From IMG/VR virus record IMGVR_UViG_3300020044_003647: a DNA stretch of 64,000 bases; one strand, 5' to 3'. The notes beneath the pieces were generated by a model. The model saw nothing but the letters and a program-made list of their open reading frames with translations, was not told the origin of the DNA and did not search any database. Within the stretch, counting starts at the first letter, position 1; every line of letters begins with the position of its first letter. The DNA comes from an uncultured virus (IMG/VR IMGVR_UViG_3300020044_003647). Its lineage: Duplodnaviria; Heunggongvirae; Uroviricota; Caudoviricetes. The position numbers were made by a program, and so were the translations under genes. Positions 1,106 to 36,057 of the stretch are shown here, one piece after another.

Positions 1106-1208
1106 AAACTCCCATAAATCCACCGCTTCTGACTTCGGTTTCATTATAGGAGTTTATGTAAGTCCTTTAAGTTGGTATAATGTCAGAAGCCAACTATTAC
1201 GCAAATAT
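1106..1208 (-). ncRNA. Promoter plus two-hairpin kissing-loop leader RNA (type 1)
   Basis: TATATTTG box, then a hairpin with loop CUUCUGAC, then a long hairpin with loop GUCAGAAG, then a U-run. Co-varies with 31328..31429. Confidence 0.7.
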
Positions 1209-1227
1209 AAAAATAAATTCTAAATAA

Positions 1228-1668
1228 TCAATCTAAATTCAATAAAATTTCTTCATTAGGATTTGGAATGTCAACTCCTAAAAATTCCGCACTCCATTTC
1301 TGAACTTCCAAAACATATTCCATAAACTGAACCGTACTCATTTCGCTAGAACTAATTTTCTCCGATAGCACTTGACCGGTATCGATATTTACAATCTCAT
1401 TACTAGGGGAAAACAATGGAAGCAATATTCCGTAGTGAATCGAATCCGCACTCCTAAACTCGCCCGTAGCATCTTTTAATCCACTTTGTACAATGGGAAT
1501 AACAACGCCCCAATAATATGAGTTTTGATTGTTAGATCGGCTCTTTTTTAGTTTCTCAATAGTAATAACAATGTTCTTACCCTCAAACTCTGCAATCGCT
1601 TGTTTAACTTGCTCTCGGTTGCGTTTAAGATTTTCGTTTTCTACGCTGGATATTATTTTGTGTTTCAT
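1228..1668 (-). CDS. NinB/YbcN-like recombination-associated protein
   Basis: RSNNQNSYYWG and SSSEMSTVQF motifs; located in the recombination module. Confidence 0.55.
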   Translation of the reverse strand: MKHKIISSVENENLKRNREQVKQAIAEFEGKNIVITIEKLKKSRSNNQNSYYWGVVIPIVQSGLKDATGEFRSADSIHYGILLPLFSPSNEIVNIDTGQVLSEKISSSEMSTVQFMEYVLEVQKWSAEFLGVDIPNPNEEILLNLD

Positions 1669-1678
1669 AAAATAAATT

Positions 1679-1700
1679 ACGCCCCGAATTAACGAGGCGT
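1679..1700 (-). terminator. Intergenic hairpin downstream of the SSB-like gene
   Basis: ACGCCTCG-ttaatt-CGGGGCGT on the minus strand; identical in copy B near 32377-32398. Confidence 0.45.
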
Positions 1701-1707
1701 TTTTTAA

Positions 1708-1995
1708 TTAGAATGGTAGATCATCTGTTTCAGGTACATCAGCAGATTCAACTTGTGCCTCCATCGGAGTTGATTCTTTCATATTTCCAAAATAGAACTT
1801 GTCCTCTTTTGTTGCTCCTTTAAAGTTTGATTGAAAGGAAGCGATGTTTCCAAATTTATCAACTTCATCGTTTACGTACATTCGCACGTTTAAATAAATT
1901 TTTCCGTTTTCGGATTTTGAAAAAGCCTTGTTTCCCGATTTTGCCTGCTCAATTAATTTACTAAAATCGATTGAACCATAATAAGACTGCGCCAT
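1708..1995 (-). CDS. Putative single-stranded DNA-binding protein
   Basis: Acidic C-terminal DDLPF tail; adjacent to the ERF recombinase. Confidence 0.6.
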   Translation of the reverse strand: MAQSYYGSIDFSKLIEQAKSGNKAFSKSENGKIYLNVRMYVNDEVDKFGNIASFQSNFKGATKEDKFYFGNMKESTPMEAQVESADVPETDDLPF

Positions 1996-2005
1996 AAATA
2001 AAAAA

Positions 2006-2500
2006 TTAAAGATTAATAAAAATTGTTTCTTGTTGTTGTGTTATGTTGTATTTGGTTTTTACTTGATCCAATGAAAAGCCACCATCCTTTGCCTTTTTAA
2101 GTATTTCAGTTGTAGCGTTTGGTTTTGGCTCTACTGCCTTTTGCCCATCGTCATCATCTGCGCCAACGCAAACAAATGATTGAAGCGAATATCTACGAGC
2201 GTAACTTATTCCACTGCCTTGCGCTTGTGCATCGTTTATTTTATTGTAAACTATTTCGGTAAGTGATTCCATCATTTCGCCAGTTTCGTGCAGCAATATA
2301 GTTTTAACAAAGTTTTTGCCATCCACGTGAACAATCGGCTGCAGGACCGAAATACCGTTTGCGTTTAGCGTTGGTATTACTGCCTCCCGGATTGCGTTTA
2401 AATCTGCGTACTTCTTTTTAAAAAAAGGATTTTCAGCTTGTTTTTTTGGGTTGCTCATTTCTGACTGTGCTTTTAATAAAGCGGTTGCAATGTTTTTCAT
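2006..2500 (-). CDS. ERF-family single-strand annealing recombinase
   Basis: NPFFKKKYADL...QAQGSGISYARRYSL...DDDG signature. Confidence 0.85.
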   Translation of the reverse strand: MKNIATALLKAQSEMSNPKKQAENPFFKKKYADLNAIREAVIPTLNANGISVLQPIVHVDGKNFVKTILLHETGEMMESLTEIVYNKINDAQAQGSGISYARRYSLQSFVCVGADDDDGQKAVEPKPNATTEILKKAKDGGFSLDQVKTKYNITQQQETIFINL

Positions 2501-2529
2501 AAGATAAGATATTAAGATTAATTATTGAT

Positions 2530-2973
2530 TTAAAATGATATTGCCAAACTGCTTTTGCGAGGCGTTGTACTAACTTTAGGCACTTGAACTCCTGCCGCAT
2601 CGTATATTTCGTTTTGCGATTTTAAAGCTAACTTTAGTAAGTCCTCACGTTCTTTAAGTTCTCGATTAATGTCGCTCCACACTTCGCAGTCTTTGTAATT
2701 AATTGTTTCGCCACCACTTCTAAATGTGCCTTTAAGTCCAAACGCTTCAAAGTTTTCTTGCGGAAGTACTTTTAAAAGTTCAGCGTTAATTACTTCCAAC
2801 GCTTCGCCCATTCGTTTGGCTTGTGCTAGTAGTTCAAATTTGTCTGTTTCTCCAGCATCTAACAAATCTTTAATGAATGTTTGTGCCGAGAACTGGATTT
2901 CTTTTTTGTTTGGTAAGAAATTGCTTGTTTGAATTTCTTGCTCTCTCATTAACTGGAATAAATCTTTGCTCAT
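2530..2973 (-). CDS. Conserved phage hypothetical protein
   Basis: Homologue at 33226..33669. Confidence 0.75.
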   Translation of the reverse strand: MSKDLFQLMREQEIQTSNFLPNKKEIQFSAQTFIKDLLDAGETDKFELLAQAKRMGEALEVINAELLKVLPQENFEAFGLKGTFRSGGETINYKDCEVWSDINRELKEREDLLKLALKSQNEIYDAAGVQVPKVSTTPRKSSLAISF

Positions 2974-2990
2974 AATGTTTAAATTAAAAA

Positions 2991-3083
2991 ATCCTAACTT
3001 AAATCCTATTGGTCAGAATAGGCAAAATTAGGATCGATTATAATTTTTGTTTCAATCTCTGACCAGATTGTTTTGCAAATGTA
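2991..3083 (-). ncRNA. Promoter plus two-hairpin kissing-loop leader RNA (type 2)
   Basis: TACATTTG box; CAAUCU-GGUCAG-AGAUUG; then AUCCUAA..CCUAUU-CUGACC-AAUAGG..UUAGGAU and a U-run. Confidence 0.7.
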
Positions 3084-3088
3084 ATTAA

Positions 3089-4190
3089 TTACATATTACC
3101 ATCAAAATTTTTTCGAATAATTGTGTCGATTTTTTTACTTATATCGTTAAAATAAGTCGTTTTTAGAATAGTGTCGGTTGTTGCTAACTCGTTATTCATT
3201 TCCTCAAACAAAGCGATTAAGTCTAACCTTGCCTTTTTCATCTTTGGAGTTGTAGCTTGTAACTCGTCTAAGTTTTCTAACATCAAATGCGATAGGCATA
3301 CCAGCTTGTGCATCAATTGGTCTTTACGTTTACTCATAATTCATTTTGCTAAAAGTCAATAGAAATTTATCTTTTCCCTCTGTGATGTATATTTCTTGTA
3401 GGTACTCTTGATTTGTAAAGGAAACGTAACCGCTATGATTGATTCCTAACCGCACTAATTTAGCATCTAGTAAGTGTCTAGGTATTCCAGACTTTTCGGA
3501 GAACGCTCGTGTGGTGCTGTGGGTTTCTGTTTGTGATATTACTAGCATAGTTCATCGGTGTTATCTTCTTTTCCCTCTTGCCAATTTACTTCCCAATCTT
3601 CAACGATTGAACTCACGTTAGTGAAAGTAAAGTAAAAGAACACGCAGTAAAATAGAATAAAAAACGCTACTGCTCCTGCTAGGAATGGGTGCAAATCTAT
3701 AAAGTTGAATAAGTCTTTCATTAGAATAAGTTGTTTAGTTGCTTAATAGGGTTTTGAAATATCTCGTCAAAGACTTTAGTAGCTTGGTCTAGTTGTGGAG
3801 TGTTTAATACTTCCGCATCGTTTACTTCCCAATCGTTAAGTAAAGACTGCATTAAGTCTTTAGCTTGTCTTAGTTCGTTCTCTAGATAAGCATTTCTAGT
3901 TCTTAATGCTTCTATTTGCTCCGCTTGAAATTTAATTAAATCATTCATTATTCTATGTCTTTTAAAAGGTTTGATATTATTGTTGCTAATCCGTTATTGT
4001 CGTACATTCCATCCGCTAGAAATTTAATCTCTTTAATGTAAACCTCTAAGGTAATTGCTTTTTTCATCCACTCCATTTTTTCATTAAATAAAGTGTTTGC
4101 TAGTTCTTCATAACAGTCAACATTATTGTCAACTTGGTTCGCTGGGTGGCTACTGTTGCCAACTCCTAATACTTGGTCATCGTAATTCAT
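3089..4190 (-). CDS. Cluster of small early genes (3089-3337, 3330-3548, 3542-3721 membrane peptide, 3721-3948, 3948-4190)
   Basis: Translationally coupled ORFs with homologues at 36063-37405. Confidence 0.7.
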
Positions 4191-4218
4191 AATATTTGTT
4201 TTTTAAAGTTTGATAGGG

Positions 4219-4281
4219 CAAATGTAAAATAAAAAAGTTAATAAAAAAATTTTTTTATATAAAAGTTTATTTGTAGGTTTG
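4219..4281. promoter_or_regulatory. Divergent Bacteroidota primary-sigma promoters around an 18-bp A/T palindrome
   Basis: TACATTTG (minus, 4219-4226) and TAGGTTTG (plus, 4274-4281) match the TAnnTTTG -7 box. ATAAAAAAATTTTTTTAT lies at 4241-4258. Conserved at 37942-38004. Confidence 0.7.
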
Positions 4282-4300
4282 CAAATGTAAGTAGGTTAAT

Positions 4301-4437
4301 GGCTTATAACGAAAAAGCATATATGCAGTGTGGGAATAAGAAACCTAAATTTTAAATTATGCAAAAAAGTTTATTTGAAATCCAAAACATTGATAAAACA
4401 CAAAAGCCCACATTGCTTATATGCAGTGTTAGTGGCA
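4301..4437. repeat. attC-like imperfect inverted repeat (candidate recombination site)
   Basis: TTATAAC ... GCATATATGCAGTGTGGG (4317-4334) / CCCACATTGCTTATATGC (4407-4424) ... GTTAGTGGCA. Confidence 0.6.
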
Positions 4438-5063
4438 GTTTTTCTTCCATTACGTATAAACAATCGGTTGATTTTTTATTACCTCGCCATTATTCAGGTA
4501 GGAAACCGAGTATTACTTTTTCTTTTGGTTACTTTGAAAATAACGAATTGAAAGCAGTATGCACATTTGGAAAACCTGCAAGTAATAGTTTATGTATTGG
4601 AGTTTGTGGCAAAGAATATAGCGAAAAGGTATTTGAATTAAACCGCCTTTGCGTTGATGGAGAAATCGAAATACAACTATCAAAGTTTGTAGCTTGGTGT
4701 TTAAATGAATTGAAAGTAAAAGATTTAATATTAGTGTCTTATGCTGATAGCCAAATGAACCATAACGGATATATTTACCAAGCTACAAATTGGATTTATA
4801 CTGGAATGACAAAAGCAAGAACTGATAAATATGTAGAAGGTGGTAAACATTCAAGGCATTACGATAATGAAAAACAAAACGGTTTAAGAAAATACCGAAG
4901 TGCTAAACACCGATACATTTATTTTGCAACAAGTAAAACCAAAAGAAAAGATTATATGAAAAAATTAAATTACGGAATTGAACCTTATCCAAAAGGCGAG
5001 AATAAAAAATACGAACTTGGTACATTTATCGAACCGATTGTTATTAGCACTGTCGTTTCTTAA
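4359..5063 (+). CDS. Mom-like (GNAT-fold) DNA adenine modification protein
   Basis: RHYSGR, GKPAS, ELNRL and LVSYAD..NHNGYIYQATNWIYTG motifs typical of Mu Mom homologues. Confidence 0.75.
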   Translation: MQKSLFEIQNIDKTQKPTLLICSVSGSFSSITYKQSVDFLLPRHYSGRKPSITFSFGYFENNELKAVCTFGKPASNSLCIGVCGKEYSEKVFELNRLCVDGEIEIQLSKFVAWCLNELKVKDLILVSYADSQMNHNGYIYQATNWIYTGMTKARTDKYVEGGKHSRHYDNEKQNGLRKYRSAKHRYIYFATSKTKRKDYMKKLNYGIEPYPKGENKKYELGTFIEPIVISTVVS

Positions 5064-5129
5064 AATTGCCACTAACTCGTGGCTACGACTGATAAATTGC
5101 GACCTATCACGCCAAAACAACAAAAAAGG

Positions 5130-5339
5130 ATGAAAATAACCCACATTAACACTATCCAAAATCCGAAGTTTATAATAGTTCGCCACTATGATAATTCTAT
5201 TGTAACTTTGCCATCTGAATTTAGAGTAGTTGAACAGGATGCAATCGGTTGCTGGCGTGTGCGAATTATCGATAAAATACCAAAAGAATATAAACAACTA
5301 AATAATACAGTATGGCTGGCAGACCAAAAAAAGGAATAG
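5130..5339 (+). CDS. Hypothetical protein (start revised to ATG 5130)
   Basis: Homologue 38062..38274 starts at the equivalent position. Confidence 0.7.
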   Translation: MKITHINTIQNPKFIIVRHYDNSIVTLPSEFRVVEQDAIGCWRVRIIDKIPKEYKQLNNTVWLADQKKE

Positions 5340-5461
5340 AAAAAAGAGTAGCGTATAACGGTAAACTTGAGAAGTATAAGATTGAAGTGATCGGAGGTAC
5401 AAAAGAATGCAACCGATTGGCTTACGATTATTTAACTAAAAAATACAATGAAAGAAAATAA
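5312..5461 (+). CDS. 49-aa basic protein starting MAGRPKKG; candidate DNA-binding regulator
   Basis: Conserved at 38247..38396 with mostly synonymous changes. Confidence 0.65.
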   Translation: MAGRPKKGIEKRVAYNGKLEKYKIEVIGGTKECNRLAYDYLTKKYNERK

Positions 5462-5531
5462 CGAGGATATTGTGCTTTTAATAGTTATGCTTTTACTAGC
5501 GATAACTTATGGCGTTTTAGTTTGTTGGTAA
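5448..5531 (+). CDS. 27-aa single-transmembrane peptide
   Basis: MKENNEDIVLLIVMLLLAITYGVLVCW; conserved at 38383..38466. Confidence 0.55.
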   Translation: MKENNEDIVLLIVMLLLAITYGVLVCW

Positions 5532-5555
5532 TTAAAATAAATTACTACATTTGCC

Positions 5556-5614
5556 TTTCATAATGTTTGATGTTTGATAATTAGAAAAGCCACTATTCAT
5601 CTAGTGGCTTTTTT
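5556..5614 (+). ncRNA. Candidate ~60-nt small RNA
   Basis: TACATTTG box at 5546-5553, then a conserved non-coding tract and an intrinsic terminator. Conserved at ~38490-38548. Confidence 0.55.
5585..5614. terminator. Bidirectional intrinsic terminator
   Basis: AAAAGCCACTA-ttcatc-TAGTGGCTTTTTT between convergent operons. Confidence 0.8.
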
Positions 5615-5715
5615 ATATCATCCTCAATCGGTGGTATTCCTTTCCATTTGTTGACGGCTTTCTCAACTCGCACCCAATCACTACCCTTTTTTATCCATTC
5701 ATATTGAGGTATCAA
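5593..5715 (-). CDS. 40-aa Trp/Lys-rich peptide, last gene of the lysis operon (TTG start)
   Basis: ..YEWIKKGSDWVRV..NKWKGIPPIED; conserved at 38527..38649 with synonymous changes. Confidence 0.6.
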   Translation of the reverse strand: MIPQYEWIKKGSDWVRVEKAVNKWKGIPPIEDDIKKPLDE

Positions 5716-6215
5716 AGCAAGGGAAATTTAATATAGCCTTTATAGTATCGATAGGCTAAATAACAAGCTAGAATAATCAACAGCCACAACCACCAGAGTT
5801 GAAGTATAAAAGTACTCCAATTAAATTGCTCCTTATAAACTATCTTACTGCTTTCAATCTTATTTACTTCAATCTCGTTTGTGAGTGAATCAACTACGAT
5901 TTTAGACACGCTTTTCTCATTTACAACTATTGTATTGTCTTTTCTTTTTTTGTGGCTTAAACGAGCGTTTTTGTAACGAGTTACTTTTCCCTCGTTGTTT
6001 ATTATTTCAATAGGTTTAGTACTATCAACTGCTTCGATAATTATTTCCTCTGTTGCCACGTCGAATTTAATTGAAGTGCTATCTGTGGAAGTGCTGTCGG
6101 TTTTGATTACTTGTGTTGCAACCGATGTTGAATCGGTTTTCTTTTGCTCTTTGTTGAGTGTTTTTGCTCCGCAGCTAATAAGTAGTAGTGCAAATAGTAT
6201 TGATGTTAGTTTCAT
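5712..6215 (-). CDS. Lipoprotein with C-terminal TM helix; candidate unimolecular spanin
   Basis: Lipobox LLISC, C-terminal hydrophobic helix, located in the lysis module. Confidence 0.6.
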   Translation of the reverse strand: MKLTSILFALLLISCGAKTLNKEQKKTDSTSVATQVIKTDSTSTDSTSIKFDVATEEIIIEAVDSTKPIEIINNEGKVTRYKNARLSHKKRKDNTIVVNEKSVSKIVVDSLTNEIEVNKIESSKIVYKEQFNWSTFILQLWWLWLLIILACYLAYRYYKGYIKFPLL

Positions 6216-6331
6216 TTCAATTTAGTTTTAATTATTTTACGATATACTTCGTTTACAAATTCTCTATTTTGACCTCTTGAATAATAGAAATTCATTACTC
6301 TTTTTATTCTTTGGTATGGCGTTTGGCTCAT
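6212..6331 (-). CDS. 39-aa hypothetical peptide, copy A only
   Basis: MSQTPYQRIKRV...; fills the gap and overlaps the next start (ATGA). Confidence 0.45.
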   Translation of the reverse strand: MSQTPYQRIKRVMNFYYSRGQNREFVNEVYRKIIKTKLK

Positions 6332-6332
6332 A

Positions 6333-7484
6333 TTAAAATAAATGTGTTAAACCTTGTAATTGTCCGTGATTAAAATCGTGTATAAATCCCTCAACTGCCT
6401 TTGGCGAGTGCTGGTATCCATTTCTGTGATGCCAACTATCTGTGCCACTAGGAGAACGTAAAGCCTCAACACATACACTCATATAATCTTTACTTATCTT
6501 ATGATGGAAATGATGAATATAAAAATACCTATGGCTACAATCTTGCCAGTCTTTACTTTCGTGCGCCATTAGTAAAGCCAAATCAGTTTCTTTTGCGCCA
6601 TCTCCGTGAGTAGTGCCTACAATGTTATTACCATATCTGTAATACTTACGATGTGAAATGCTACAATCAAAGGTAACGTTTTTACAATCTTTAAAATGCG
6701 TTTGTATTATTTGCGCTAAAAAGAATCCATTTGTATAATCGTGATTGCTAGGATTAAATACTACGTGAACATCCGCTACTTGCATCATCATTTCAATAAT
6801 ATCTACATAAAGCTGTTTGGCAATCATAAAATTTTCAAACCACATACCGTCTGTATCTTGTGGTGTTCCGCTTGTTGTTGTTCTCTTTGCGTTATCTATG
6901 TGCAAAATATCGTTTCCTATAACAAATAATATCCTATCGATGCTATCTGTTGGTAGTTCGGCTAATAGTCCATTACAACCCTCTAAAACACGTCTAACTG
7001 CTATTTGATTGTTATAATCTTCTCCGCTTTCAAAAGCGTTACAAAGTTTTCCAATATGAATATCAGCAGGAGAAAACACAAATAGTCTTTTTTGTTGATT
7101 TTTAGACCTTTCAATCTTTGGGTATTTTGGAGTGTAGTCTTTTAGGTTGTCGATTAACTTTGTTCTTAGTTCCTCTAACTCCTTTTTATCTTGTTCAACG
7201 TAATTAGGATTTTTTACAAATAAAGAGGCTTCTTTATTCTTTACCCAAAGATGCTTAACGGTTGTATTGTCAATATCTAGGCTATTTGTAGCGTTGTAAA
7301 TGCCCTCGTGATTATCGCAAATTCTGTTTAGGTTTCTCTCGAGATATTTACTGAAAGATTTTTTGTCTGGTCCATTTAGATTATCATCTATTCGCCTTAT
7401 TATTTCAATCTTTTGTAATTTTTGTTCTGAATTATTAACTATTTCTAGTATTTTTTCATCGTAGATACTCCATTTTGATAGCAT
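6333..7484 (-). CDS. Calcineurin-like metallophosphoesterase
   Basis: DIHIG, GNDILH, NHD, HGD and HHFHH motifs. Start moved to ATG 7484, downstream of a TATATTTG promoter. Confidence 0.75.
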   Translation of the reverse strand: MLSKWSIYDEKILEIVNNSEQKLQKIEIIRRIDDNLNGPDKKSFSKYLERNLNRICDNHEGIYNATNSLDIDNTTVKHLWVKNKEASLFVKNPNYVEQDKKELEELRTKLIDNLKDYTPKYPKIERSKNQQKRLFVFSPADIHIGKLCNAFESGEDYNNQIAVRRVLEGCNGLLAELPTDSIDRILFVIGNDILHIDNAKRTTTSGTPQDTDGMWFENFMIAKQLYVDIIEMMMQVADVHVVFNPSNHDYTNGFFLAQIIQTHFKDCKNVTFDCSISHRKYYRYGNNIVGTTHGDGAKETDLALLMAHESKDWQDCSHRYFYIHHFHHKISKDYMSVCVEALRSPSGTDSWHHRNGYQHSPKAVEGFIHDFNHGQLQGLTHLF

Positions 7485-7522
7485 AATTTTGTTGTTTAGT
7501 TTCAACAAATATAACCTTTTAT

Positions 7523-7972
7523 CTATGCAAAATACAAATTCGCCTCTTTTGTGCGTCGTTTGGTCAGTCCGTTGTTTACCACACCACCAGCTTTATTCCA
7601 AATTAAGAATGAATTTCTAATTGTCGGATCGCTTGGATTTGCATTTACTTTTTTCAATAATGAACTTTTAGCAAGACCATTTAAGCCGATATTATAAGCT
7701 AGAGATACAATAGCATTGAACTGGTTTTGATTAATATTTGCTTTAATCATTTTATCTACATCGACTGCAAATTTATCGGATATTTCTTTTAACATCCATT
7801 TAGCAGTAGCCAAACTAATTGGAGGGTCTTGTAGCGTTACTTTTTTTAAACTAGGGTAAAATGTCGCTCCGTACCCTATTGTCGCAACTCCAGCACTACA
7901 TTTATAAGGAACTAAAGATAAACCCTCAAACTCTTGCAACAATTTATACCCGCTCTCATCTAGCTTGTTCAT
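7523..7972 (-). CDS. Endolysin, GH24 phage lysozyme
   Basis: FEG...Y.CSAGVATIGYG, QNQFNAIVSLAYNIG and GLTKRR..E motifs. Confidence 0.9.
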   Translation of the reverse strand: MNKLDESGYKLLQEFEGLSLVPYKCSAGVATIGYGATFYPSLKKVTLQDPPISLATAKWMLKEISDKFAVDVDKMIKANINQNQFNAIVSLAYNIGLNGLAKSSLLKKVNANPSDPTIRNSFLIWNKAGGVVNNGLTKRRTKEANLYFA

Positions 7973-8361
7973 TTTGCTGACTTTTTATGATTATCAAAAT
8001 CTGTTTTTAATTTTGCGTAAAGTCCTTTTAAACTTTCGTGGTCTTTAGCTAGTTCGTTGTATTTATCGGTTAATTGTCTATGCAATTTTTCCCAATTTTG
8101 AGACTTCTCTACCTCTTTTGCATAACTCATTTGAATATTATTAAAGTCTGTTTGTAAAGTAAGATTATGTTTTTTCATTTCAACAACTTCTTGCATAACC
8201 TCATCCATTCGATTTTTATAAACAGTTAAAAAGTCATCATACATTATTTTCATTGTAGAAACTGCATCTTGCCTTTGTTTGGCTCTACCTCCAAAAAACC
8301 AAGCTACTGGCGCAGCTAATGTTGCTATAATAGTTTGCCAATATTCGTATAAAAAATTCAT
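7969..8361 (-). CDS. Putative holin-like membrane / coiled-coil protein
   Basis: N-terminal hydrophobic segment and coiled coil; overlaps the endolysin start. Confidence 0.5.
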   Translation of the reverse strand: MNFLYEYWQTIIATLAAPVAWFFGGRAKQRQDAVSTMKIMYDDFLTVYKNRMDEVMQEVVEMKKHNLTLQTDFNNIQMSYAKEVEKSQNWEKLHRQLTDKYNELAKDHESLKGLYAKLKTDFDNHKKSAK

Positions 8362-8362
8362 A

Positions 8363-8620: not shown

Positions 8621-8622
8621 AA

Positions 8623-13744: not shown

Positions 13745-13746
13745 AA

Positions 13747-26669: not shown

Positions 26670-26681
26670 AATTCAAATGTA

Positions 26682-28838: not shown

Positions 28839-29396
28839 TTATTTTGATTTTAACACTTCCTTGCATTTAATATCGTACTGTAATTTTTTGGCTATCAACT
28901 GCTCACGTGTGAATTTTAGTTGTCTTGTGTCGTTTGCTAGTTGTTCAATATCATTTGCGTAATCAACTCCATACCTATCAATTAAACCTAGTCTATAATT
29001 TAATTCGTTGCCATTTAAAAAGCGGTTGCACTTGCGGCATTGTTTGTGGCAATTCATTTCGTTGAATATAACGCCTGAATATATCTCGGCTTTTTTATAG
29101 TGTCCGCCATCCCATAACTCGGTGGTTTTTACTCCGCAGGATATGCAAGGTAATTCAGCATCACGCAACCTAATAAACTTCTGAAATGATTTTTTAGCCT
29201 CTGCCTCTAATTGCGTTAACGTTTTTAAAGCCGTTTTAAGGCTTTGTTTTTCCTTTTGCCACACTTTACTCGCATTTACTTTTACTTTTGCTCTAGCGTA
29301 TTGTATTGAAGCGTCAACGCATTTTTCATCGTTGCAATGCTTTTGTAAAAAACGAGTTGGTGTAAATTTCTGTTTGCAGTTTAGGCATCTAGGCAT
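28839..29396 (-). CDS. NinG/Rap-like endonuclease
   Basis: FIRLRD..PCISCG..DGGHY..NCHKQC.KCN..L.GN motifs. Confidence 0.85.
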   Translation of the reverse strand: MPRCLNCKQKFTPTRFLQKHCNDEKCVDASIQYARAKVKVNASKVWQKEKQSLKTALKTLTQLEAEAKKSFQKFIRLRDAELPCISCGVKTTELWDGGHYKKAEIYSGVIFNEMNCHKQCRKCNRFLNGNELNYRLGLIDRYGVDYANDIEQLANDTRQLKFTREQLIAKKLQYDIKCKEVLKSK

Positions 29397-29397
29397 A

Positions 29398-30228
29398 TTA
29401 TTCTATTAAGTAAGGCAATCCGTTTTTATTAATATCAAAAGCAAAAGAATTAAAGTGATATCCACGTGAGTAGGGATTTGTAACTGTAACGCTACGATCT
29501 GAATTAACATCTAAATTTATAACCGTTTCAGCTTTTTTTAGTACATAAGTTCCTAAATGTCCCAAAGGTTTGCCAGTACTTGCCGCTTTGTGTATAATTG
29601 CTATCACGTGAATATTATAATCATTTGTCCATTTTAAAATAAAATCACTCGCTTGTTTGCTTAAAATAATATCGTTTGTGTTTTCTACTAAATCCGCTAT
29701 TCCATCAATAGCAATCAGCTTGACTTCTTTTTTGTATAGAGTTTTTTGGTTTGTTAAACAGTAATCAATAAGTCCTAACCTTTCAGCAGATGATAAACTA
29801 CGGGTTGCATAACCTTTGTAATGCTCATAAACTGCTCCGCTAATATCCTGCACTCGCCTAAAAGTTCTTTGCGTGTAGTATTTGCCTTGCTCGGTGTCAA
29901 AATCCAGTATTTGATATTCTTTATCTCGGTGGCTTTTTATGTTTGGGAATAGTGTAGTAGCATTTCCACCAATGTAGCAACCTATCAATCCCGATTTTAA
30001 AAAAGATTTCTTTGCTTTTGATTCTGCAACTATTGCGGAGAACTCTCCAGCAGTCATAATTGGCGTATCGTAAAAATTTCCTTTATATTCGTGCTGGCCG
30101 ATTGAAAGTAAAATTTCTGGTTTTGGCATCTCTAAAGATAAATCAACAAAGCAATCATTCTCTAGTTGGCCAAAATTAAATTCAACTGGTGCATCTTGCA
30201 GGAGATCATCAAAATTTATATCATTCAT
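29398..30228 (-). CDS. RecA-like / AAA P-loop ATPase (putative replicative helicase)
   Basis: AESKAKKS Walker A variant, FDTEQG, IDGIADL and GHLGT motifs. Confidence 0.65.
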   Translation of the reverse strand: MNDINFDDLLQDAPVEFNFGQLENDCFVDLSLEMPKPEILLSIGQHEYKGNFYDTPIMTAGEFSAIVAESKAKKSFLKSGLIGCYIGGNATTLFPNIKSHRDKEYQILDFDTEQGKYYTQRTFRRVQDISGAVYEHYKGYATRSLSSAERLGLIDYCLTNQKTLYKKEVKLIAIDGIADLVENTNDIILSKQASDFILKWTNDYNIHVIAIIHKAASTGKPLGHLGTYVLKKAETVINLDVNSDRSVTVTNPYSRGYHFNSFAFDINKNGLPYLIE

Positions 30229-30718
30229 AGTAATTCATATTTTTAATTATTTGATTTGCGGTTTTGTAAAATGATTTTTCAACTTGCTCAAAACTCCAAT
30301 CCTTTATAAACTTTTTAGCGATTTCCTTTTGTTGCTTAATTATTATATCATCGTTGTTTTTAGCATCTAATTTCGAATGGATAAAATTAACATTTATTCC
30401 TATTGATTTTAAATAAGAATCAAATTCAACGTGATTTAAAGTTGTATGAAATATTTGAGAATGATAGTTCAAAGGTCTTTTTAGTTCATCATCAATTTTT
30501 TTTAATGCTACTTCCATAGATCCGTAATGCTCTAAATTTTGCCTCAACTGGATTGAAAGTAATTTAGCGAATAGTAAATTATCGTTTGCAATACTTTTAT
30601 CCTGCTCATCGATGCTATTTGAAATTAACTTTAGTGCATTAACATCCTCTTGATAAACTTTGCTTCGCTTAAACACGTTGTAAATGCGTTTAATGGCGTT
30701 ATCTTCTTTCCAACTCAT
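30221..30718 (-). CDS. Hypothetical replication-module protein
   Basis: Lies between initiator and ATPase; homologue at the window start. Confidence 0.7.
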   Translation of the reverse strand: MSWKEDNAIKRIYNVFKRSKVYQEDVNALKLISNSIDEQDKSIANDNLLFAKLLSIQLRQNLEHYGSMEVALKKIDDELKRPLNYHSQIFHTTLNHVEFDSYLKSIGINVNFIHSKLDAKNNDDIIIKQQKEIAKKFIKDWSFEQVEKSFYKTANQIIKNMNYYE

Positions 30719-31308
30719 ATTCTTAAAGGTATGTGGTTATCTTTTGGCTTTTGTTCCTTTTCGATGTATGATAGTGTTTGTAGCAAAGCGGATTTCCAAT
30801 TTTTAATTGGCTTATCATTTCCGTTTTTCCAACCATTAACAACCCACGCATCGTATTTGTGTTTTAATGCGGAGATTTTTACGCTTGGTTCTTTTTCTTT
30901 ACCGTAGGCTAAAAATAAATCCCAAGTTGGTATATTAATATCTTTAGATATTACATTAACATTAACATTAACATTATCATTAACAGTTGAAACCGTTGCA
31001 ACGGAATCAACGTTCGTTAACGTTCGTTGACTTTCGTTGACTTTCGTTGACTTTCGTTGCTCTGCGGATTTTTTACCTGCTTCACTCCATTGCTCACGCT
31101 TCTTTTCGTACTTAACTAAATCCCTTTTTAATTGCATCTTAATTGGCTCAAAAGCAATGTTTAAAAGCAATTCATCTGTTGTTGGATTTTCATCGTTTAC
31201 ATAAGCGTAAATATGCTTTAATAACCTACCTGCAACATCGTCTGGTAGTTGGTTTACTAAACCTTGACTGTCTGAATACAGTACAAATGATTTTTTATTT
31301 TCAGCCAT
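30715..31308 (-). CDS. Putative replication initiator (DUF6291-like N-terminus)
   Basis: KKSFVLY..GRLLKHIYAY N-terminus and NVNVNVN linker; C-terminus shared with 190..846. Confidence 0.7.
   Translation of the reverse strand: MAENKKSFVLYSDSQGLVNQLPDDVAGRLLKHIYAYVNDENPTTDELLLNIAFEPIKMQLKRDLVKYEKKREQWSEAGKKSAEQRKSTKVNESQRTLTNVDSVATVSTVNDNVNVNVNVISKDINIPTWDLFLAYGKEKEPSVKISALKHKYDAWVVNGWKNGNDKPIKNWKSALLQTLSYIEKEQKPKDNHIPLRI
31011..31060. repeat. Five tandem 10-bp repeats (C[G/T]TTCGTT..); candidate origin iterons
   Basis: cgttcgttaa cgttcgttga ctttcgttga ctttcgttga ctttcgttgc, inside the initiator gene. Confidence 0.65.
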
Positions 31309-31327
31309 AGTTAATAGTTTAAACAGA

Positions 31328-31429
31328 AAACTCCCATAAATCCAACCCGTCTCACTTGGTTTTCATTATAGGAGTTTATGTAATTCCTTTGCGTTGGTAT
31401 GTTGTGAGACGCCAACCGATAGCAAATAT
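31328..31429 (-). ncRNA. Promoter plus kissing-loop leader RNA (type 1, variant loops)
   Basis: Loops CGUCUCAC / GUGAGACG; inner stem AACC/GGUU. Confidence 0.7.
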
Positions 31430-31448
31430 AAAAATAAATTCTAAATAA

Positions 31449-31889
31449 TCAATCTAAATTCAATAAAATTTCCTCATTAGGATTTGGGATATCAACTCCT
31501 AAAAATTCTGCGCTCCATTTTTGAACTTCCATCACGTACTCCATAAACTGGACCGTACTCATTTCGCTAGAACTAATTTTCTCCGATAGCACTTGGCCAG
31601 TATCAATATTTACAATCTCATTACTTGGAGCAAACAACGGTAGCAATATTCCGTAATGAATAGAATCTGCGCTCCTGAACTCGCCCGTAGCATCTTTTAA
31701 ACCACTTTGTACAATCGGAATAACAACGCCCCAATAAAATGCGTTTTGATTGTTAGAACGGCTCTTTTTAAGTTTCTCAATGGTAATAACAATGTTTTTA
31801 CCCTCAAAATCTGCAATCGCTTGTTTAACTTGCTCTCGATTGCGTTTAAGATTTCCGTTCTCTACGCTGGAAATTATTTTATGTTTCAT
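31449..31889 (-). CDS. NinB/YbcN-like protein (start revised to 31889)
   Basis: Near-identical to 1228..1668. Confidence 0.55.
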   Translation of the reverse strand: MKHKIISSVENGNLKRNREQVKQAIADFEGKNIVITIEKLKKSRSNNQNAFYWGVVIPIVQSGLKDATGEFRSADSIHYGILLPLFAPSNEIVNIDTGQVLSEKISSSEMSTVQFMEYVMEVQKWSAEFLGVDIPNPNEEILLNLD

Positions 31890-32349
31890 TAATATAAAGC
31901 AATTTATAGCCATTACATAAATTCCATTCTTTATTTAATACACGATAAACAGCAGCAACATCCCTTTGAACAAATTTAGCGCAATCTCTTAAAGATTTGT
32001 GATTTGTAATTACATCATTTTTTATAGAAACTATTTTTTTATTAGTAACATTTTTGTTTTTAAAATTTGACATTGATGGATTTTGTAAATATGCTTTTTT
32101 TGAATTTTCAGAGTAGCTTAACCATTGTAAATTTGAAATACTATTATCATTTTTATTTCCGTTAATATGATCAACTATTGGTTTATTTTCTTTATTGTCA
32201 ATATATTTCATAGCAATAAGTCTATGAAGTCTGTACACGTTTCCGTCGATTATAACTCTATTATATCCTTGACTGTTTTTTGAAACTTTTAAAACGTTTG
32301 TATTGTAATAAAAATTATCATCTTTAATTTCAAATAAATCTATATTCAT
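31879..32349 (-). CDS. Free-standing HNH homing endonuclease, copy B only
   Basis: LHRLIA..VDHINGNKNDNSISNLQW..EN, plus a NUMOD1-like C-terminus; very AT-rich. Confidence 0.85.
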   Translation of the reverse strand: MNIDLFEIKDDNFYYNTNVLKVSKNSQGYNRVIIDGNVYRLHRLIAMKYIDNKENKPIVDHINGNKNDNSISNLQWLSYSENSKKAYLQNPSMSNFKNKNVTNKKIVSIKNDVITNHKSLRDCAKFVQRDVAAVYRVLNKEWNLCNGYKLLYINET

Positions 32350-32405
32350 TATATTTTTAAATTAAGTTTATAAATTACGCCCCGAATTAACGAGGCGTTT
32401 TTTAA

Positions 32406-32693
32406 TTAGAATGGTAAGTCATCTGTTTCCGGTACATCTGCAACTGCTATTGGAGTATCAATAGGAGTTGATTCCTTCATATTTCCAAAATAAAACTTGT
32501 CCTCTTTTGCTGCTCCTTTAAAGTTTGATTGAAAAGAAGCTACATTTCCAAATTTATCAACTTCATCATTAACGTACATACGCACGTTTAAATAGATTTT
32601 TCCGTTTTCGGATTTTGAGAAAGCCTTGTTTCCCGATTTTGCCTGCTCAATTAATTTACTAAAATCGATTGAACCATAATAAGACTGCGCCAT
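32406..32693 (-). CDS. Putative SSB
   Basis: Homologue of 1708..1995. Confidence 0.6.
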   Translation of the reverse strand: MAQSYYGSIDFSKLIEQAKSGNKAFSKSENGKIYLNVRMYVNDEVDKFGNVASFQSNFKGAAKEDKFYFGNMKESTPIDTPIAVADVPETDDLPF

Positions 32694-32702
32694 AAAAAAA
32701 AA

Positions 32703-33197
32703 TTAAAGATTAATAAAAATAGTTTCCTGTTGTTGTGTTATTGTGTATTTGGTTTTGACTTGATCCAATGAAAAGCCACCATCCTTTGCCTTTTTAAGTA
32801 TTTCAGTTGTAGCGTTTGGCTTTGGCTCTACTGCCTTTTGCCCATCATCATCATCTGCGCCCACGCAAACGAACGATTGAAGCGAATATCTGCGAGCGTA
32901 ACTTATTCCGGATCCCTGCGCTTGTGCATCGTTTATTTTGTTGTAAACTATTTCAGTTAATGATTCTAGCATTTCTCCGCTATCGTGCAGTAAAATAGTC
33001 TTTACAAAGTTTTTACCATCTACGTGAACAATCGGCTGCAATACACTAATACCGTTTGCGTTTAGTGTTGGAATAACTGCCTCACGAATTGCGTTTAAAT
33101 CTGCGTACTTCTTTTTAAAGAAAGGATTTTCAGCTTGTTTTTTTGGGTTGCTCATTTCTGACTGTGCTTTTAATAAAGCGGTTGCAATGTTTTTCAT
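32703..33197 (-). CDS. ERF-family recombinase
   Basis: Near-identical to 2006..2500. Confidence 0.85.
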   Translation of the reverse strand: MKNIATALLKAQSEMSNPKKQAENPFFKKKYADLNAIREAVIPTLNANGISVLQPIVHVDGKNFVKTILLHDSGEMLESLTEIVYNKINDAQAQGSGISYARRYSLQSFVCVGADDDDGQKAVEPKPNATTEILKKAKDGGFSLDQVKTKYTITQQQETIFINL

Positions 33198-33225
33198 AAG
33201 ATAAGATATTTAATTAATTATTGAT

Positions 33226-33669
33226 TTAAAATGATATAGCCATACTACTTTTTCGTGGCGTTGTTGATACTTTAGGCACTTGAACTCCTGCCGCATCGTA
33301 AATCTCGTTTTGCGATTTTAAAGCTAGTTTAAGAAGTTCCTCACGTTCTTTAAGTTCTCGGTTGATTTCGCTCCAAACTTCGCAATCTTTGTAGTTAATC
33401 GTTTCGCCACCGCTTCGGAATGTTCCTTTTAGTCCGTAACCCTCGAAGTTCTCTTGTGGGAGTACTTTTATAAGTTCTGCATTAATAACATCTAACGCTT
33501 CGCCCATTCTTTTGGCTTGTGCTAGTAGTTCAATTTTGTCTATCTCTCCAGCATCTAACACTTCTTTAATAAATGTTTTTGCAGATAGCTGGATCTCTAG
33601 CTTGTTTGGTAAAAAGTTTTGCGTGTCAATCTCTTGTTGTCGCATTAACTGGAATAAATCTTTACTCAT
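33226..33669 (-). CDS. Conserved phage hypothetical protein
   Basis: Homologue of 2530..2973. Confidence 0.75.
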   Translation of the reverse strand: MSKDLFQLMRQQEIDTQNFLPNKLEIQLSAKTFIKEVLDAGEIDKIELLAQAKRMGEALDVINAELIKVLPQENFEGYGLKGTFRSGGETINYKDCEVWSEINRELKEREELLKLALKSQNEIYDAAGVQVPKVSTTPRKSSMAISF

Positions 33670-33687
33670 AATGTATTAAATTAAAAA

Positions 33688-33779
33688 ATCCTAACTTAAA
33701 TCCTATTGGTCAGAATAGGCAAAGTCAGGATAGATTATAGTTTTGTTTCAATCTCTGACCAGATTGTTTTGCAAAGATA
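33688..33779 (-). ncRNA. Promoter plus kissing-loop leader RNA (type 2)
   Basis: TATCTTTG box; same loops as 2991..3083; outer-stem changes keep pairing. Confidence 0.7.
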
Positions 33780-35963
33780 TTAAAATAAAGTTAATGTACT
33801 ATTTTTTTCTTCAACAAATGCTTTGTGATTATTTTCATTTATCTTAAAATAACTTTCTTTTAATTCAATAGATATGCTTTTACGATTCATTTTTATAGCA
33901 CTACAACCTTCTGAACCAATACCACCAAACGGACTTAAAACCGTTTCGCCCTCATTTGAGTATAAATGTAATATTCTTTCAATAGTATCTAACTGTAAAG
34001 GACAAATATGCTTTTCATCATTACCATCACGCCCAGATCTATATTGTAATGTTCTTGAATAATCTATATCATACCAAACTGGAGATGCGTATTTTTGCCA
34101 CAAATCAACTGGTAAATAATCTAATTTAGAACTGTCTTTATCTTGGTGTGTTATTGGTGTTTCATTATCGCCATCATTTCTAAAAAACAAAACATAATCA
34201 GGGATTCCTACTCGGCTCATTATACTATCTTTTTTTATAGTTTTATGAAGCAATCCTAATGCTTTTGTTCTTTGCATTTCCGTAACTGGATTTTTCCATA
34301 AAGTAACTTTTGAATGATAAATAAAACCTTCCTTTTGAAACCAGTCAATTAACATTCCAGAAAAATCACGCAATCCAATATATCCTTCTTTGCCTTTTTG
34401 TATTGGTAAATCCATACAATGAATAGCGCACATACGACCGCTTTTTAGCGTTCTTTTTAATTCAGGTATAAGGAATTTAAAATGACTCTCAAATTCTTTA
34501 TAATTAGACACGTTGCCCATATCCTCTTCTTTATCTGAATAAACATACAACTCCGCAAATGGTGGCGAAAATATAACTATATCCGCACAGTTATCAGCTA
34601 GTTTAGCAGTTTCTTGAACACAATCTCCGTTTATTAAATGATATTGATCTGTTTTAATTTCTTTATTCATAATTTTTACTTTTGATTTTGATTTTTTATA
34701 ATTAGTTTCTGCGCTATATCTAGACATTTCTTTAATGCGCTCAAAATGTTGTTTTTCTTTTTCTAATATTGTATTTCTAACATTAACTTGAGATTCAGGA
34801 ATAAGGATATGAACTGTTACTTTATTCTTTTGACCAAATCTATAACAACGTCTTACCGCTTGATAAAATGCCTCAAATTTAAAATCATAAGACATAAATA
34901 CCATTTGATTGCATTGTTGGTAATTCATACCAAATGAAGCTATTGAAGTCTTTGTAATTAATGTTTTAAATTGATTATTTGCAAATCCATTTAAATACTT
35001 CGCTTTATATTCTGGATTGTCAGAACCTTGCACATTTACGCTATTTTCAAGTAATTTTGATAAAGTGTCTGTTTCTTGATTCTTTAAACCCCAAACAATC
35101 CATTGATTCTCGTTTGAATTAACAAGTTCTAAGGTCTTTTCAATTCTTAAATCAAAAGACCTATTTAAATCTTTATGTAATTCAGTAGCTGAAACTGCAA
35201 CATCTCCAAATAGATTTTCGCTTAAATTATCTACTTTTATAATATGCTCAATATATTCTATTTCTGGCAAATTATATCCATCACTACAAAAACCTAAACT
35301 AGATGGATTGTCAATAGCCATAGACCATCCAGACACATATTTCCAAAAGTTATCTTGAGCGTGTTTTCTTAATCTCCATTTTGAAGTTTCCCCTCCATCG
35401 TGAACAAAAAACATTGCTAACATTTCTAAATAAGACATACCTCCTAAAAACTCGGAATGTTGACCTAATTCCATGTGATCGTTTGGAGATGGTGTAGCGG
35501 TACAAGCTAATTTATAAGGAGTGTTTTTAAATGTTTGTAAAATTAAAGATGAAAGTTTACCATCTCTGCCTTTTAAAATACTAGATTCATCTAAAACAAC
35601 TCCAGAATAAATGCTACAATCTATATTTTTTAGTTGATCATAATTTGTAATGTCAAAGTAATTTAAGTCAATGCCAAACTTTATAGCTTCATTTTTTGTT
35701 TGCTCTACTATTGCCAAAGGCGCAAGTATTAAAACTTTTTTATTTGTTTTTAAATATACTTGTTTTGCCCATTCTAATTGTGAGAATGTTTTACCTAAAC
35801 CGCAATCAAAAAAGAATGCGAATTTACCCTTAAATAAAGCAGTTTTAATACCATACTTTTGAAAGTCTTTTAGTAATGGATTTAATTCTGTTTCTGAAAT
35901 TTCAAAACCACTTTCTGTAAAAGTTTTACGTTTTGTTTCTAAGAACTTTTGATATTCTGTCAT
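33780..35963 (-). CDS. SNF2-like helicase fused to N4-C/N6-A DNA methyltransferase, copy B only
   Basis: DCGLGKT, DESS, TATP and QAVRRCYRFGQ; then FSPPF (motif IV) and LSPFGGIGS (motif I). Start revised to MTEYQ. Confidence 0.85.
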   Translation of the reverse strand: MTEYQKFLETKRKTFTESGFEISETELNPLLKDFQKYGIKTALFKGKFAFFFDCGLGKTFSQLEWAKQVYLKTNKKVLILAPLAIVEQTKNEAIKFGIDLNYFDITNYDQLKNIDCSIYSGVVLDESSILKGRDGKLSSLILQTFKNTPYKLACTATPSPNDHMELGQHSEFLGGMSYLEMLAMFFVHDGGETSKWRLRKHAQDNFWKYVSGWSMAIDNPSSLGFCSDGYNLPEIEYIEHIIKVDNLSENLFGDVAVSATELHKDLNRSFDLRIEKTLELVNSNENQWIVWGLKNQETDTLSKLLENSVNVQGSDNPEYKAKYLNGFANNQFKTLITKTSIASFGMNYQQCNQMVFMSYDFKFEAFYQAVRRCYRFGQKNKVTVHILIPESQVNVRNTILEKEKQHFERIKEMSRYSAETNYKKSKSKVKIMNKEIKTDQYHLINGDCVQETAKLADNCADIVIFSPPFAELYVYSDKEEDMGNVSNYKEFESHFKFLIPELKRTLKSGRMCAIHCMDLPIQKGKEGYIGLRDFSGMLIDWFQKEGFIYHSKVTLWKNPVTEMQRTKALGLLHKTIKKDSIMSRVGIPDYVLFFRNDGDNETPITHQDKDSSKLDYLPVDLWQKYASPVWYDIDYSRTLQYRSGRDGNDEKHICPLQLDTIERILHLYSNEGETVLSPFGGIGSEGCSAIKMNRKSISIELKESYFKINENNHKAFVEEKNSTLTLF

Positions 35964-35979
35964 TATATTAAAATTAAAA

Positions 35980-36057
35980 AACCCACTCAATGACCGCCAA
36001 GTACAAAGAGTGAGTTAGTTATAAATTCAATCTTGGCGGATTTCTTTTGCAATAATA
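35980..36057 (-). ncRNA. Kissing-loop leader RNA (type 3) upstream of the helicase-MTase gene
   Basis: AAUC-CGCCAA-GAUU; AACUCACUC..CUUGGCGG..GAGUGGGUU and a U-run. Promoter box is imperfect (TATTATTG). Confidence 0.6.

Follow-up and report, generated by a model that had tools for sequence, protein, structure and literature searches.

Introduction

In phage lambda, a single PR'-tR' unit, the source of the 6S RNA, stands before the late genes and is released by Q bound at the promoter. In the P4 CI, P1/P7 c4 and pT181 systems, short complementary segments encoded in the leader covary and decide premature termination; these RNAs act in trans after processing or from an antisense promoter, extra target copies are present, and each system occurs once per genome in an immunity or replication-control region. 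The put element of HK022 consists of two stem-loops just past the early phage promoters which act in cis on their own polymerase; it has no U-run terminator, and we know of no loop-loop helix in it.

For Stx phages, the StxS sRNA has been described as arising from an active promoter with an immediate intrinsic terminator, which yields a short leader RNA unless antitermination takes place (PMC7547250). PeSL cassettes of T4-like phages are described as short promoter/stem-loop composites between genes that serve as exchange points for unrelated modules (PMC4122927). In the guanidine-IV riboswitch (mepA motif), the terminator hairpin is engaged by a kissing loop that competes with its completion, the growing stem taking up the linker (PMC11611296). 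Among the sources covered, we came across no other described system in which termination is controlled by a kissing loop that engages a terminator loop.

Here we report that five segments of a 64-kb stretch of Flavobacterium-type phage DNA, analysed as a whole and referred to as the window, are part of a large uncatalogued phage family, which we call kissing-loop terminator leaders.

Results and Discussion

The first-pass annotation had proposed five minus-strand leader RNAs of one common design. All five are present where it had placed them, and the shared layout was confirmed: a Bacteroidota -7 box is followed after ~5 nt by a first hairpin (HP1, loop L1), an A/U linker, a long hairpin interrupted by an internal loop (HP2, apical loop L2), a U-run 3' of HP2 and the start codon.

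1103..1209, minus strand: leader cassette E1; -7 box 1209-1202 (TATATTTG); HP1 1194-1171; L1 1189-1182; linker 1170-1153; HP2 1152-1109; L2 1133-1126; U-run 1108-1103; start codon of a 73-aa ORF at 1060; loop pair CUUCUGAC/GUCAGAAG, 9 bp counting one closing pair
2986..3083, minus strand: leader cassette E2; -7 box 3083-3076 (TACATTTG); HP1 3070-3053; L1 3064-3059; HP2 3034-2991; L2 3016-3011; U-run 2990-2986; start codon of a 147-aa ORF at 2973; loop pair GGUCAG/CUGACC, 8 bp as UGGUCAGA/UCUGACCA
31325..31430, minus strand: leader cassette E3; -7 box 31430-31423 (TATATTTG); HP1 31416-31393; L1 31411-31404; HP2 31374-31331; L2 31355-31348; U-rich run 31330-31325; start codon of a DUF6291 replication-type ORF at 31308; loop pair CGUCUCAC/GUGAGACG
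33683..33779, minus strand: leader cassette E4; -7 box 33779-33772 (TATCTTTG); HP1 33766-33749; L1 33760-33755; HP2 33731-33688; L2 33713-33708; U-run 33687-33683; start codon at 33669; loop pair as in E2
35976..36057, minus strand: leader cassette E5; -7-like box 36057-36050 (TATTATTG); HP1 36042-36029; L1 36039-36032 (overlaps the closing pair); HP2 36014-35982 (19-nt loop); L2 36001-35994; U-run 35981-35976; start codon at 35963; loop pair CCGCCAAG/CUUGGCGG

The TAnnTTTG box assigned to the whole set is present in E1 to E4; that of E5 deviates at one base. As had been noted, the HP1 loop is complementary to the apical loop of HP2 in all five elements, over 6-9 nt. The inner stem is compensated between E1 and E3 (ACCG/CGGU versus AACC/GGUU), both retain the internal loop UGAA/GGAU, and G-U pairs in the outer HP2 stems of E1, E2 and E4 are specific for the minus strand, with A-C on the opposite one. 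MFE folds recovered both hairpins in four of the five elements; the MFE fold of E5 is a different long helix, and its HP2 appears only in the centroid fold.

All five elements came up in a terminator-anchored scan blind to loop complementarity, with G+C-rich 8-9-mers and p values of 0.0-0.03 (200 shuffles for each). A few hairpins in coding sequence reached similar values (e.g., 33421-33464, plus strand, 0.035), none of them intergenic behind a -7 box. No kissing-loop element was found in the remaining intergenic gaps of the window, and the 8-mer arms are confined to their own elements, with no further copy in the 64 kb. Unfiltered terminator-like hairpins as a class showed no excess of complementarity (3918, all loci); the signal is confined to promoter-proximal hairpins, of which 29 have at least 8 complementary nt versus 5.2 expected (n = 211).

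Members of the family were found in IMG/VR contigs, in Bacteroidota MAG contigs and in cultured Flavobacterium phages, namely the Ficleduovirus FCV-1 group and Muminvirus snusmum9-1. Rfam 15 contains no match: scans of the window and of 8 loci at gathering score, and of window 30500-37000 and contig L009 4700-6100 at E ≤ 10, hit none of the elements. The literature searched contained no description of this leader design.

Alignment of 13 E1/E3-type leaders showed pairing of the loop-loop helix in 98% of cells. Five of its eight pairs vary at both positions, and no pair varies at a single one. Over the whole structure 90.6% were paired versus 70.2% after shuffling (reached by 0 of 500), and sliding the structure lowered pairing to 39-47%. 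Among 41 covariance-model hits, in an alignment fitted to the model itself, the nested helices were paired to 96.5% versus 57.4% with double changes in 18 of 18 pairs. All 41 hits lie on the gene strand, and one HP2 pair is U-G on that strand in 15 of 37 distinct rows. With a covariance model that ignores the loop pairing, 27 of 31 distinct hits had at least 6 complementary nt between their own loops; for non-self loop combinations of these hits the count was 94 of 930. In distinct regions upstream of DUF6291 homologues the full descriptor was found in 29 of 62 on the sense strand versus 2 of 62 on the antisense strand. Every helix thus covaries, that between the loops included, and the family is large.

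The kissing helix comprises 6-10 bp in ~25 loop-pair versions, all Watson-Crick and without G-U extension (6 G-U versus 20 A-C at 88 flanking positions). Geometry was taken from 45 curated elements that had been chosen using complementarity. In these, HP1 begins 2-11 nt (mean 4.9) behind the -7 box, L2 lies 18 ± 1.8 nt from the HP2 base, and the A/U-rich linker measures 10-31 nt (mean 17.8). A longer basal stem goes with a shorter linker (Spearman -0.47), a correlation among related, non-independent sequences that is partly a product of how the basal stem is called. The UGAA/GGAU internal loop is invariant in the six closest leaders, and another subfamily has an AGUA/GAAA type. Some members show an interrupted U-run (UUAACUUUU). 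A simple terminator scanner misses HP2 because it demands a loop of 3-8 nt.

On the evidence of conserved structure and position, these leaders are most likely promoter-proximal, cis-acting transcription attenuators in which the kissing helix sets or gates read-through, a reading to which we give about an even chance. The cassette promoter would be of host type (Bacteroidota sigma-A) and the transcript is predicted to start ~5 nt past the -7 box, which would make HP1 the 5'-terminal hairpin. HP2, in which a conserved non-canonical internal loop separates a G+C-based lower stem from a short upper stem, would form together with the U-run an intrinsic terminator ~10-60 nt ahead of the start codon. 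Standing in front of DNA-metabolism and accessory modules, the cassette would halt polymerases that come in from the unit before it, and the majority of those that start at its own promoter. The kissing helix could form once L2 has emerged from the polymerase, when the 3' arm of HP2 has yet to be synthesised, and might then set or gate the fraction that reads through. We infer the start of transcription, termination at the U-run, and the effect of the kissing helix on termination and its direction from the sequence; the effect could also be the opposite, or nil.

The closest precedent for such a step is the guanidine-IV riboswitch, which likewise has two hairpins, the second being the terminator, with kissing between their loops; here the likeness is one of covariation and not of biochemistry. 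The shortening of the linker with a longer basal stem corresponds to the competition described for guanidine-IV (PMC11611296), and steric competition of the kissing helix with closure of the terminator base may operate here as well. Against it stands that, on paper, HP1 and HP2 are compatible with the kissing helix in most members, the ratio of extended linker length to helix span averaging 1.2 (range 0.65-2.4). Unlike the conserved ligand-binding loops of guanidine-IV, the loop letters here are free and form a plain duplex. Guanidine-IV precedes guanidine-export genes, whereas our leaders precede genes of phage DNA metabolism (helicase-methylase, Erf block, replication initiator, HNH, ParB-like). 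The Rfam scans gave no match to that class, and none of the genes that follow is of a guanidine-export or detoxification type.

The annotation had spoken of a reusable RNA switch. A real, strand-specific and reusable leader RNA family with covarying loop-loop pairing stands, but no alternative, mutually exclusive pairing was found in MFE or centroid folds. A stable, G+C-rich kissing helix of 6-10 bp offers no obvious input signal for a gate, and as the helices are compatible on paper in most members, the leader may represent a fixed valve, or else a structural module. Translational control, also suggested, is unlikely: the start codons follow HP2 at a distance of ~10-60 nt, in unpaired A/U-rich sequence that does not sequester them.

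Attenuation would fit the position of the leaders. E5 heads a helicase/N6-N4 methylase fusion gene and E4 a block of a 147-aa ORF, Erf, an unknown gene, HNH and NinB. Gating of replication, recombination and methylase operons had been proposed; the leaders do stand at the head of these blocks, though a switching action there would be hypothetical. Among 25 other leader contexts, an HNH endonuclease gene comes next in three, a methylase or ParB gene in two, and a replication or primosomal-type gene in four, two of these being unnamed PHROGs shared with the DUF6291 protein of the window.

The same arrangement is compatible with a possible, if unlikely, alternative, in which efficient promoter-proximal terminators are opened by an immediate-early phage protein or a host factor reading the shape of the kissing complex and not its sequence, all units being released together as in the lambda N/Q cascade. 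Rom/Rop recognises ColE1 kissing complexes in this way. In phage A, the promoters of the first unit are plain TACATTTG boxes without a leader and the unit has only small unknown ORFs, and the units after it all begin with a leader; moreover, the architecture is kept with free loop letters, and the internal loops (UGAA/GGAU; AGUA/GAAA) could be protein sites. Against such a factor, no Q, N or other antiterminator family was recognised among 68 distinct window ORFs (PHROGs; 20 also Pfam), many of the small ORFs having no family. The same search recognised no integrase and no repressor, in line with the earlier remark that no CI repressor is visible. In FCV-1, tblastn matches were obtained for only 3 of 52 phage B proteins, no small early protein among them, and both phages carry leaders; a conserved dedicated phage factor is thus not visible by sequence. 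All five cassettes have a -7 box and a hairpin with U-run, candidate counterparts of the promoter and terminator of PR'-tR', but the lambda unit is single, serves late genes, lacks a loop-loop helix and depends on Q, whereas here three units per genome stand before early or middle genes and no Q-family protein was found. Of HK022 put, the leaders share only the two-hairpin position behind early promoters, and the U-run behind HP2 argues against a put-type reading.

The borders of the leaders bear on a second alternative, which we likewise regard as possible, if unlikely: the kissing fold would give one compact shape, with paired 5' end and 3' hairpin, that protects against nucleases and folds alike in any genomic context, a portable cassette for expressing genes that are mobile or swappable, whose own termination efficiency is independent of the kissing helix. 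One module is present in only one of the two phages compared:

33776..36041, minus strand: module of phage B absent from phage A, running from the E5 leader body through the helicase-methylase gene to the E4 promoter

The junction of this indel is the 12-nt promoter box/transcript start 'TTGCAAAA' common to E5, E4 and E2, and A 3068-3079 aligns with both B 36042-36053 and B 33764-33775. A-B similarity ends directly after the E1/E3 U-run, with unrelated genes beyond. As judged from these two junctions between A and B, leader edges coincide with mosaic junctions. In contig L009, an inserted ParB-like gene brings its own second leader; this, the leaders before HNH endonuclease genes and the start of HP1 shortly behind the -7 box would all suit a portable module. 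In role, though in no sequence relation, the leader edges resemble PeSLs as junctions of an indel and a gene replacement. PeSLs are described (PMC4122927) as terminator/promoter composites with a T4-type early promoter and a single stem-loop, without second hairpin or loop-loop pairing and in a different host phylum, whereas the leaders have a Bacteroidota-type box, two hairpins and loop-loop pairing. However, ordinary terminators and 5' hairpins function without a loop-loop helix, and the fixed height of L2 and the conserved internal loops are left unexplained.

Returning to attenuation, we consider doubtful its most far-reaching form, a ligand-free, sequence-programmable 'kissing-loop valve' whose helix forms during terminator synthesis and sterically decides base closure, and whose short leader RNA titrates address-matched nascent copies, as would be possible because every leader has its own address. 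If true, each phage module would have RNA-only feedback, related co-infecting phages could exclude one another by RNA, Bacteroidota phages would possess a general protein-free timing and insulation of gene modules, and ready-made orthogonal parts for engineering would be at hand.

A trans-acting or immunity RNA is very unlikely. Here a terminated ~90-nt leader would accumulate and, by way of L1 or L2, base-pair with nascent leaders of its own type, much as in P4 CI, P1 c4 or pT181-type attenuation, providing feedback or exclusion of co-infecting relatives with the loops as specificity alleles. Close relatives do differ in their loop alleles, with compensation, on an almost identical backbone (CUUCUGAC, CUUCUCAC, CGUCUCAC, GCUUCGAC, GGUCUGAC), and each genome has several leaders with mostly different loops. 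Nevertheless, the arms show no faster change than other parts of the leader (4 of 15 variable columns versus 7 of 18 in the linker), two leaders of contig L013 have the same loops, and arms paired to each other in the folded RNA are not free. The analogy to P4 CI and P1 c4 drawn in the first-pass annotation is weak: a leader RNA with covarying complementary segments is common to both, but here each arm has one partner, in cis, there is no extra target copy in the window, and no Rfam C4 match.

That the 6-9-mers are DNA-level inverted repeats, as protein sites or recombination signals, is extremely improbable: purely Watson-Crick helices and mosaic junctions at leader edges would suit it, but ~25 loop pairs would demand as many binding specificities, the arms always lie in hairpin loops on stems with many G-U pairs on the gene strand only, and every covariance-model hit falls on that strand.

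Conclusions

Almost nothing is known about how Bacteroidota phages control their genes, and the genomes analysed here have no recognisable repressor or antiterminator. A covarying fold that recurs ahead of replication, recombination, methylase and homing-endonuclease genes, and is shared by many uncultured phages and cultured Flavobacterium phages, therefore provides a testable handle on the timing and dosing of early genes. The match between leader edges and mosaic junctions bears on the exchange of phage modules. The sole described mechanistic relative, guanidine-IV, needs a ligand and conserved loops; if our reading is true, the kissing-loop/terminator principle would be far wider, with freely exchangeable loop sequences.

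Structure of the leader cassettes

Re-reading of the minus strand bore out the first-pass annotation, which had described five intergenic segments of one layout: a promoter box (the -7 box), a small first hairpin (HP1), an A/U linker, a long hairpin with an internal loop (HP2), a U-run and the start codon, the two hairpins carrying mutually complementary loop arms (L1 and L2). The promoter box had been given as TAnnTTTG, from which the box of E5 deviates by one base.

1103..1209, minus strand: leader E1, phage A
2986..3083, minus strand: leader E2, phage A
31325..31430, minus strand: leader E3, phage B
33683..33779, minus strand: leader E4, phage B
35976..36057, minus strand: leader E5, phage B

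The minimum free energy structure from RNAfold comprises HP1 and HP2 in E1-E4; in E5, HP2 appears only in the centroid. A scan anchored on terminator-like hairpins, in which loop complementarity was not used for detection, revealed in E1-E5 G+C-rich matches of 8-9 nt that link the inside of HP2 to the 75 nt upstream (p 0.0-0.03). The remaining intergenic gaps of the window contain plain terminators or nothing, but no such element. A simple promoter/terminator scanner, built on an E. coli-type promoter consensus and a terminator rule demanding a 3-8-nt loop, says nothing on these elements.

Two further features of E1 were rejected, namely a leader peptide (a 15-codon ORF, but with a stop after 4 codons in E3) and an additional pairing between the HP1-loop sequence AUUAUA and the sequence UAUAAU of the HP2 arm, which is absent from E3 and from the related phage loci L009, L011 and L038 and thus due to chance. 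Downstream of the E1 U-run and ahead of the start codon (window 1061-1100, minus strand) lies a conserved segment of ~30 nt of the AAUAGUUAUCGGUAAUCUUUAAACCG type, which recurs behind the leaders of loci L011, L012, L026 and L047 and matches Flavobacterium phage morran9-1 at 88.6%. It may form another small hairpin or serve as a protein site.

Gene order in the window

In the window ~2.5 phage genomes, related to one another and each ~33 kb long, are arranged head to tail, with boundaries near 5,300-5,700 and 38,050-38,650. The boundary regions (5114-5700 and 38049-38634) are 87% identical to each other, and each contains a strong simple terminator of the GCCAC...GUGGCUUUU type. The long ORFs are on the minus strand, with one clear exception, a gene divergent from phage A's first early promoters:

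4359-5063, plus strand: Mom-like DNA-modification gene (Pfam PF25680, 1.4e-28)

Genes and leaders of phage B, in order of transcription:

Small unknown ORFs
E5, then the helicase/N6-N4 methylase fusion
E4, then a 147-aa ORF, Erf, an unknown ORF, HNH, NinB
E3, then the DUF6291 primosomal-type protein, an unknown ORF, an AAA-like protein, NinG
Small ORFs, terminase, portal, tail genes, endolysin

Integrase, repressor and antiterminator families were not recognised among the 68 distinct window ORFs scanned against PHROGs. Phage B's HNH endonuclease gene (31899-32369) is inserted in comparison with phage A, the flanks being 89-90% identical; it sits within its operon and has no separate leader. 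In phage A, the first small ORF is preceded (window 4180-4370, minus strand) by two tandem TACATTTG promoter boxes, and since these are hairpin-free, the first transcription unit of this phage lacks the leader design. Window DNA had no match in GenBank phages outside the helicase-methylase gene (33780-35963), which shares 77.5% nucleotide identity with 64 Flavobacterium phage records including the cultured phage FCV-1; the stated host is F. columnare in 58 of these 64.

Covariation of the loop-loop helix

That the loops co-vary had been claimed from the window, and covariation is indeed present among homologues. The tests made no use of the loop pairing for finding members. When 13 E1/E3-type leaders were aligned with MAFFT and the pseudoknot was entered in the structure, 98% of the cells of the loop-loop helix were paired, five of its eight pairs had changed on both sides and none on one side only. 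Over the whole structure, 90.6% of cells were paired in comparison to 70.2% in shuffles (0/500 reached the observed value) and 39-47% when the sequences were slid.

Two covariance models, R1 and R2, were constructed without the pseudoknot and yielded 27 matches in 0.95 Mb and 41 matches in 1.10 Mb, respectively, all on the gene strand. The HP1 loop was complementary to its own HP2 apex over at least 6 nt in 27 of 31 distinct model matches compared to 94 of 930 other combinations; in the four failing matches HP1 is misaligned, and inspection by eye reveals the pairing. In the 41 matches the nested helices were 96.5% paired compared to 57.4%, the alignment being fitted to the model, and they contain many U-G pairs, which would be A-C on the opposite strand. 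A G-U extension of the loop helix, sought as a strand test, was not seen. As a negative control, all 3918 terminator-like hairpins of all loci were pooled and showed no excess of complementarity (8-mers, for example, 147 versus 153.7); the excess is restricted to promoter-proximal hairpins behind a -7 box. The results show a folded RNA, specific to one strand, whose loop-loop helix covaries and which lies between a promoter box of host type and the gene that opens a module.

Distribution of the family

Exact-pattern scans of IMG/VR found close relatives, one of which combines the E3 loop allele with the inner stem of E1. Two leaders built alike but with different loops (GUAGUGC/GCACUAC and GUAGAGAG/CUCUCUAC) occur in the cultured lytic phage FCV-1 and are conserved in 65 and 70 GenBank records. 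In the homologous leader of the Muminvirus snusmum9-1 the loops are GUGGAACG/CGUUCCAC, compensated at four positions, and as natural variation among cultured phages the leader of FCOV-S1 shows a single change without compensation, which leaves a helix of 7 instead of 8 bp. The 31-aa 'hypothetical protein' gp041 annotated in snusmum9-1 (L134 21-116; MN812237 14006-14101) overlaps the leader promoter and HP1 and is probably a spurious gene call.

Eighty IMG/VR loci fetched via the DUF6291 protein gave 62 distinct upstream regions. The full descriptor of the element was satisfied in 29/62 on the sense strand versus 2/62 antisense, and 28 of the 29 sense-strand matches also have the -7 box. Some 25 different loop pairs occur among 45 curated elements, which describe the family and are no test of it because they were chosen by complementarity. 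The MAG contigs that carry typical members have the labels Flavobacterium, Flavobacteriaceae, Crocinitomicaceae, Saprospiraceae and Bacteroidetes; the Firmicutes loci and the three isolate loci retrieved through DUF6291 showed no member.

Of the five elements in the window, E1 and E3 are the only ones that R1 and R2 pick up at E ≤ 1. Types E2, E4 and E5 are detected by the descriptor but escape both models, so that model counts understate the family. R2 matched in 2 of 121 Flavobacterium genomes, both times adjoining phage-like genes, although with 33 candidates scored per genome and a narrow model this is no measure of chromosomal absence. In a separate search it matched none of five genomes, one of which has two descriptor matches, and is therefore too narrow.

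Geometry and possible mode of action

In the 45 curated elements HP1 starts 2-11 nt (mean 4.9) after the -7 box, at the predicted transcript 5′ end, L2 is separated from the base of HP2 by 18 ± 1.8 nt on both sides, and the linker measures 10-31 nt (mean 17.8). Loop helices end abruptly at A.A, A.C or A.G mismatches. Internal loops are kept within subfamilies, UGAA/GGAU being unchanged among the six leaders closest to one another. In another subfamily the internal loop, immediately beneath the L2 hairpin, is AGUA...GAAA; it resembles the loop-E/sarcin-ricin consensus and may point to a defined 3D module or protein site:

L006 40409-40442
L007 2878-2922
L009 5923-5962
L010 7424-7465
L052 11802-11898

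Several observations are consistent with a portable cassette. A 12-nt promoter-box junction bounds the helicase-methylase module, similarity between phages A and B stops directly behind the E1/E3 U-run with unrelated genes next, and a ParB-like gene inserted in L009 brings its own leader. Gating of antitermination by a dedicated phage protein is disfavoured, as FCV-1 contains matches to just 3 of 52 proteins of phage B, with no small early protein among them. A trans-acting RNA is opposed by arms that have no other copies in the window and vary no faster than the remainder of the leader, and by one contig with identical loops in two leaders; diversifying selection on the loops was not seen.

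As a promoter-proximal attenuator, the leader would terminate transcription at HP2 and its U-run, and the loop-loop helix may affect this termination. Longer basal stems go with shorter linkers (Spearman -0.47, related sequences). In the guanidine-IV riboswitch (PMC11611296), a kissing loop that engages the terminator loop impedes full closure of the terminator stem, and the linker becomes shorter as this stem grows; the negative relation fits this picture, the best mechanistic precedent. The average linker, however, is long enough to accommodate all three helices together, so that any effect could run in either direction.

At the element positions no match to any Rfam 15 family was found, either at gathering score or at E ≤ 10; the leaders are members of neither guanidine-IV nor C4. 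The only true Rfam match type was DUF805b RNA (RF02914; gathering score 35.6), a motif separate from the leaders:

L009 4962-4994: 49.5 bits; directly behind an E1-type leader, ahead of a ParB-like ORF
L017 3531-3563: 38 bits; leader not evident just upstream

A description of the motif was not found in searches of the openly accessible literature. The element would combine a promoter-proximal terminator leader with a kissing-loop/terminator contact.
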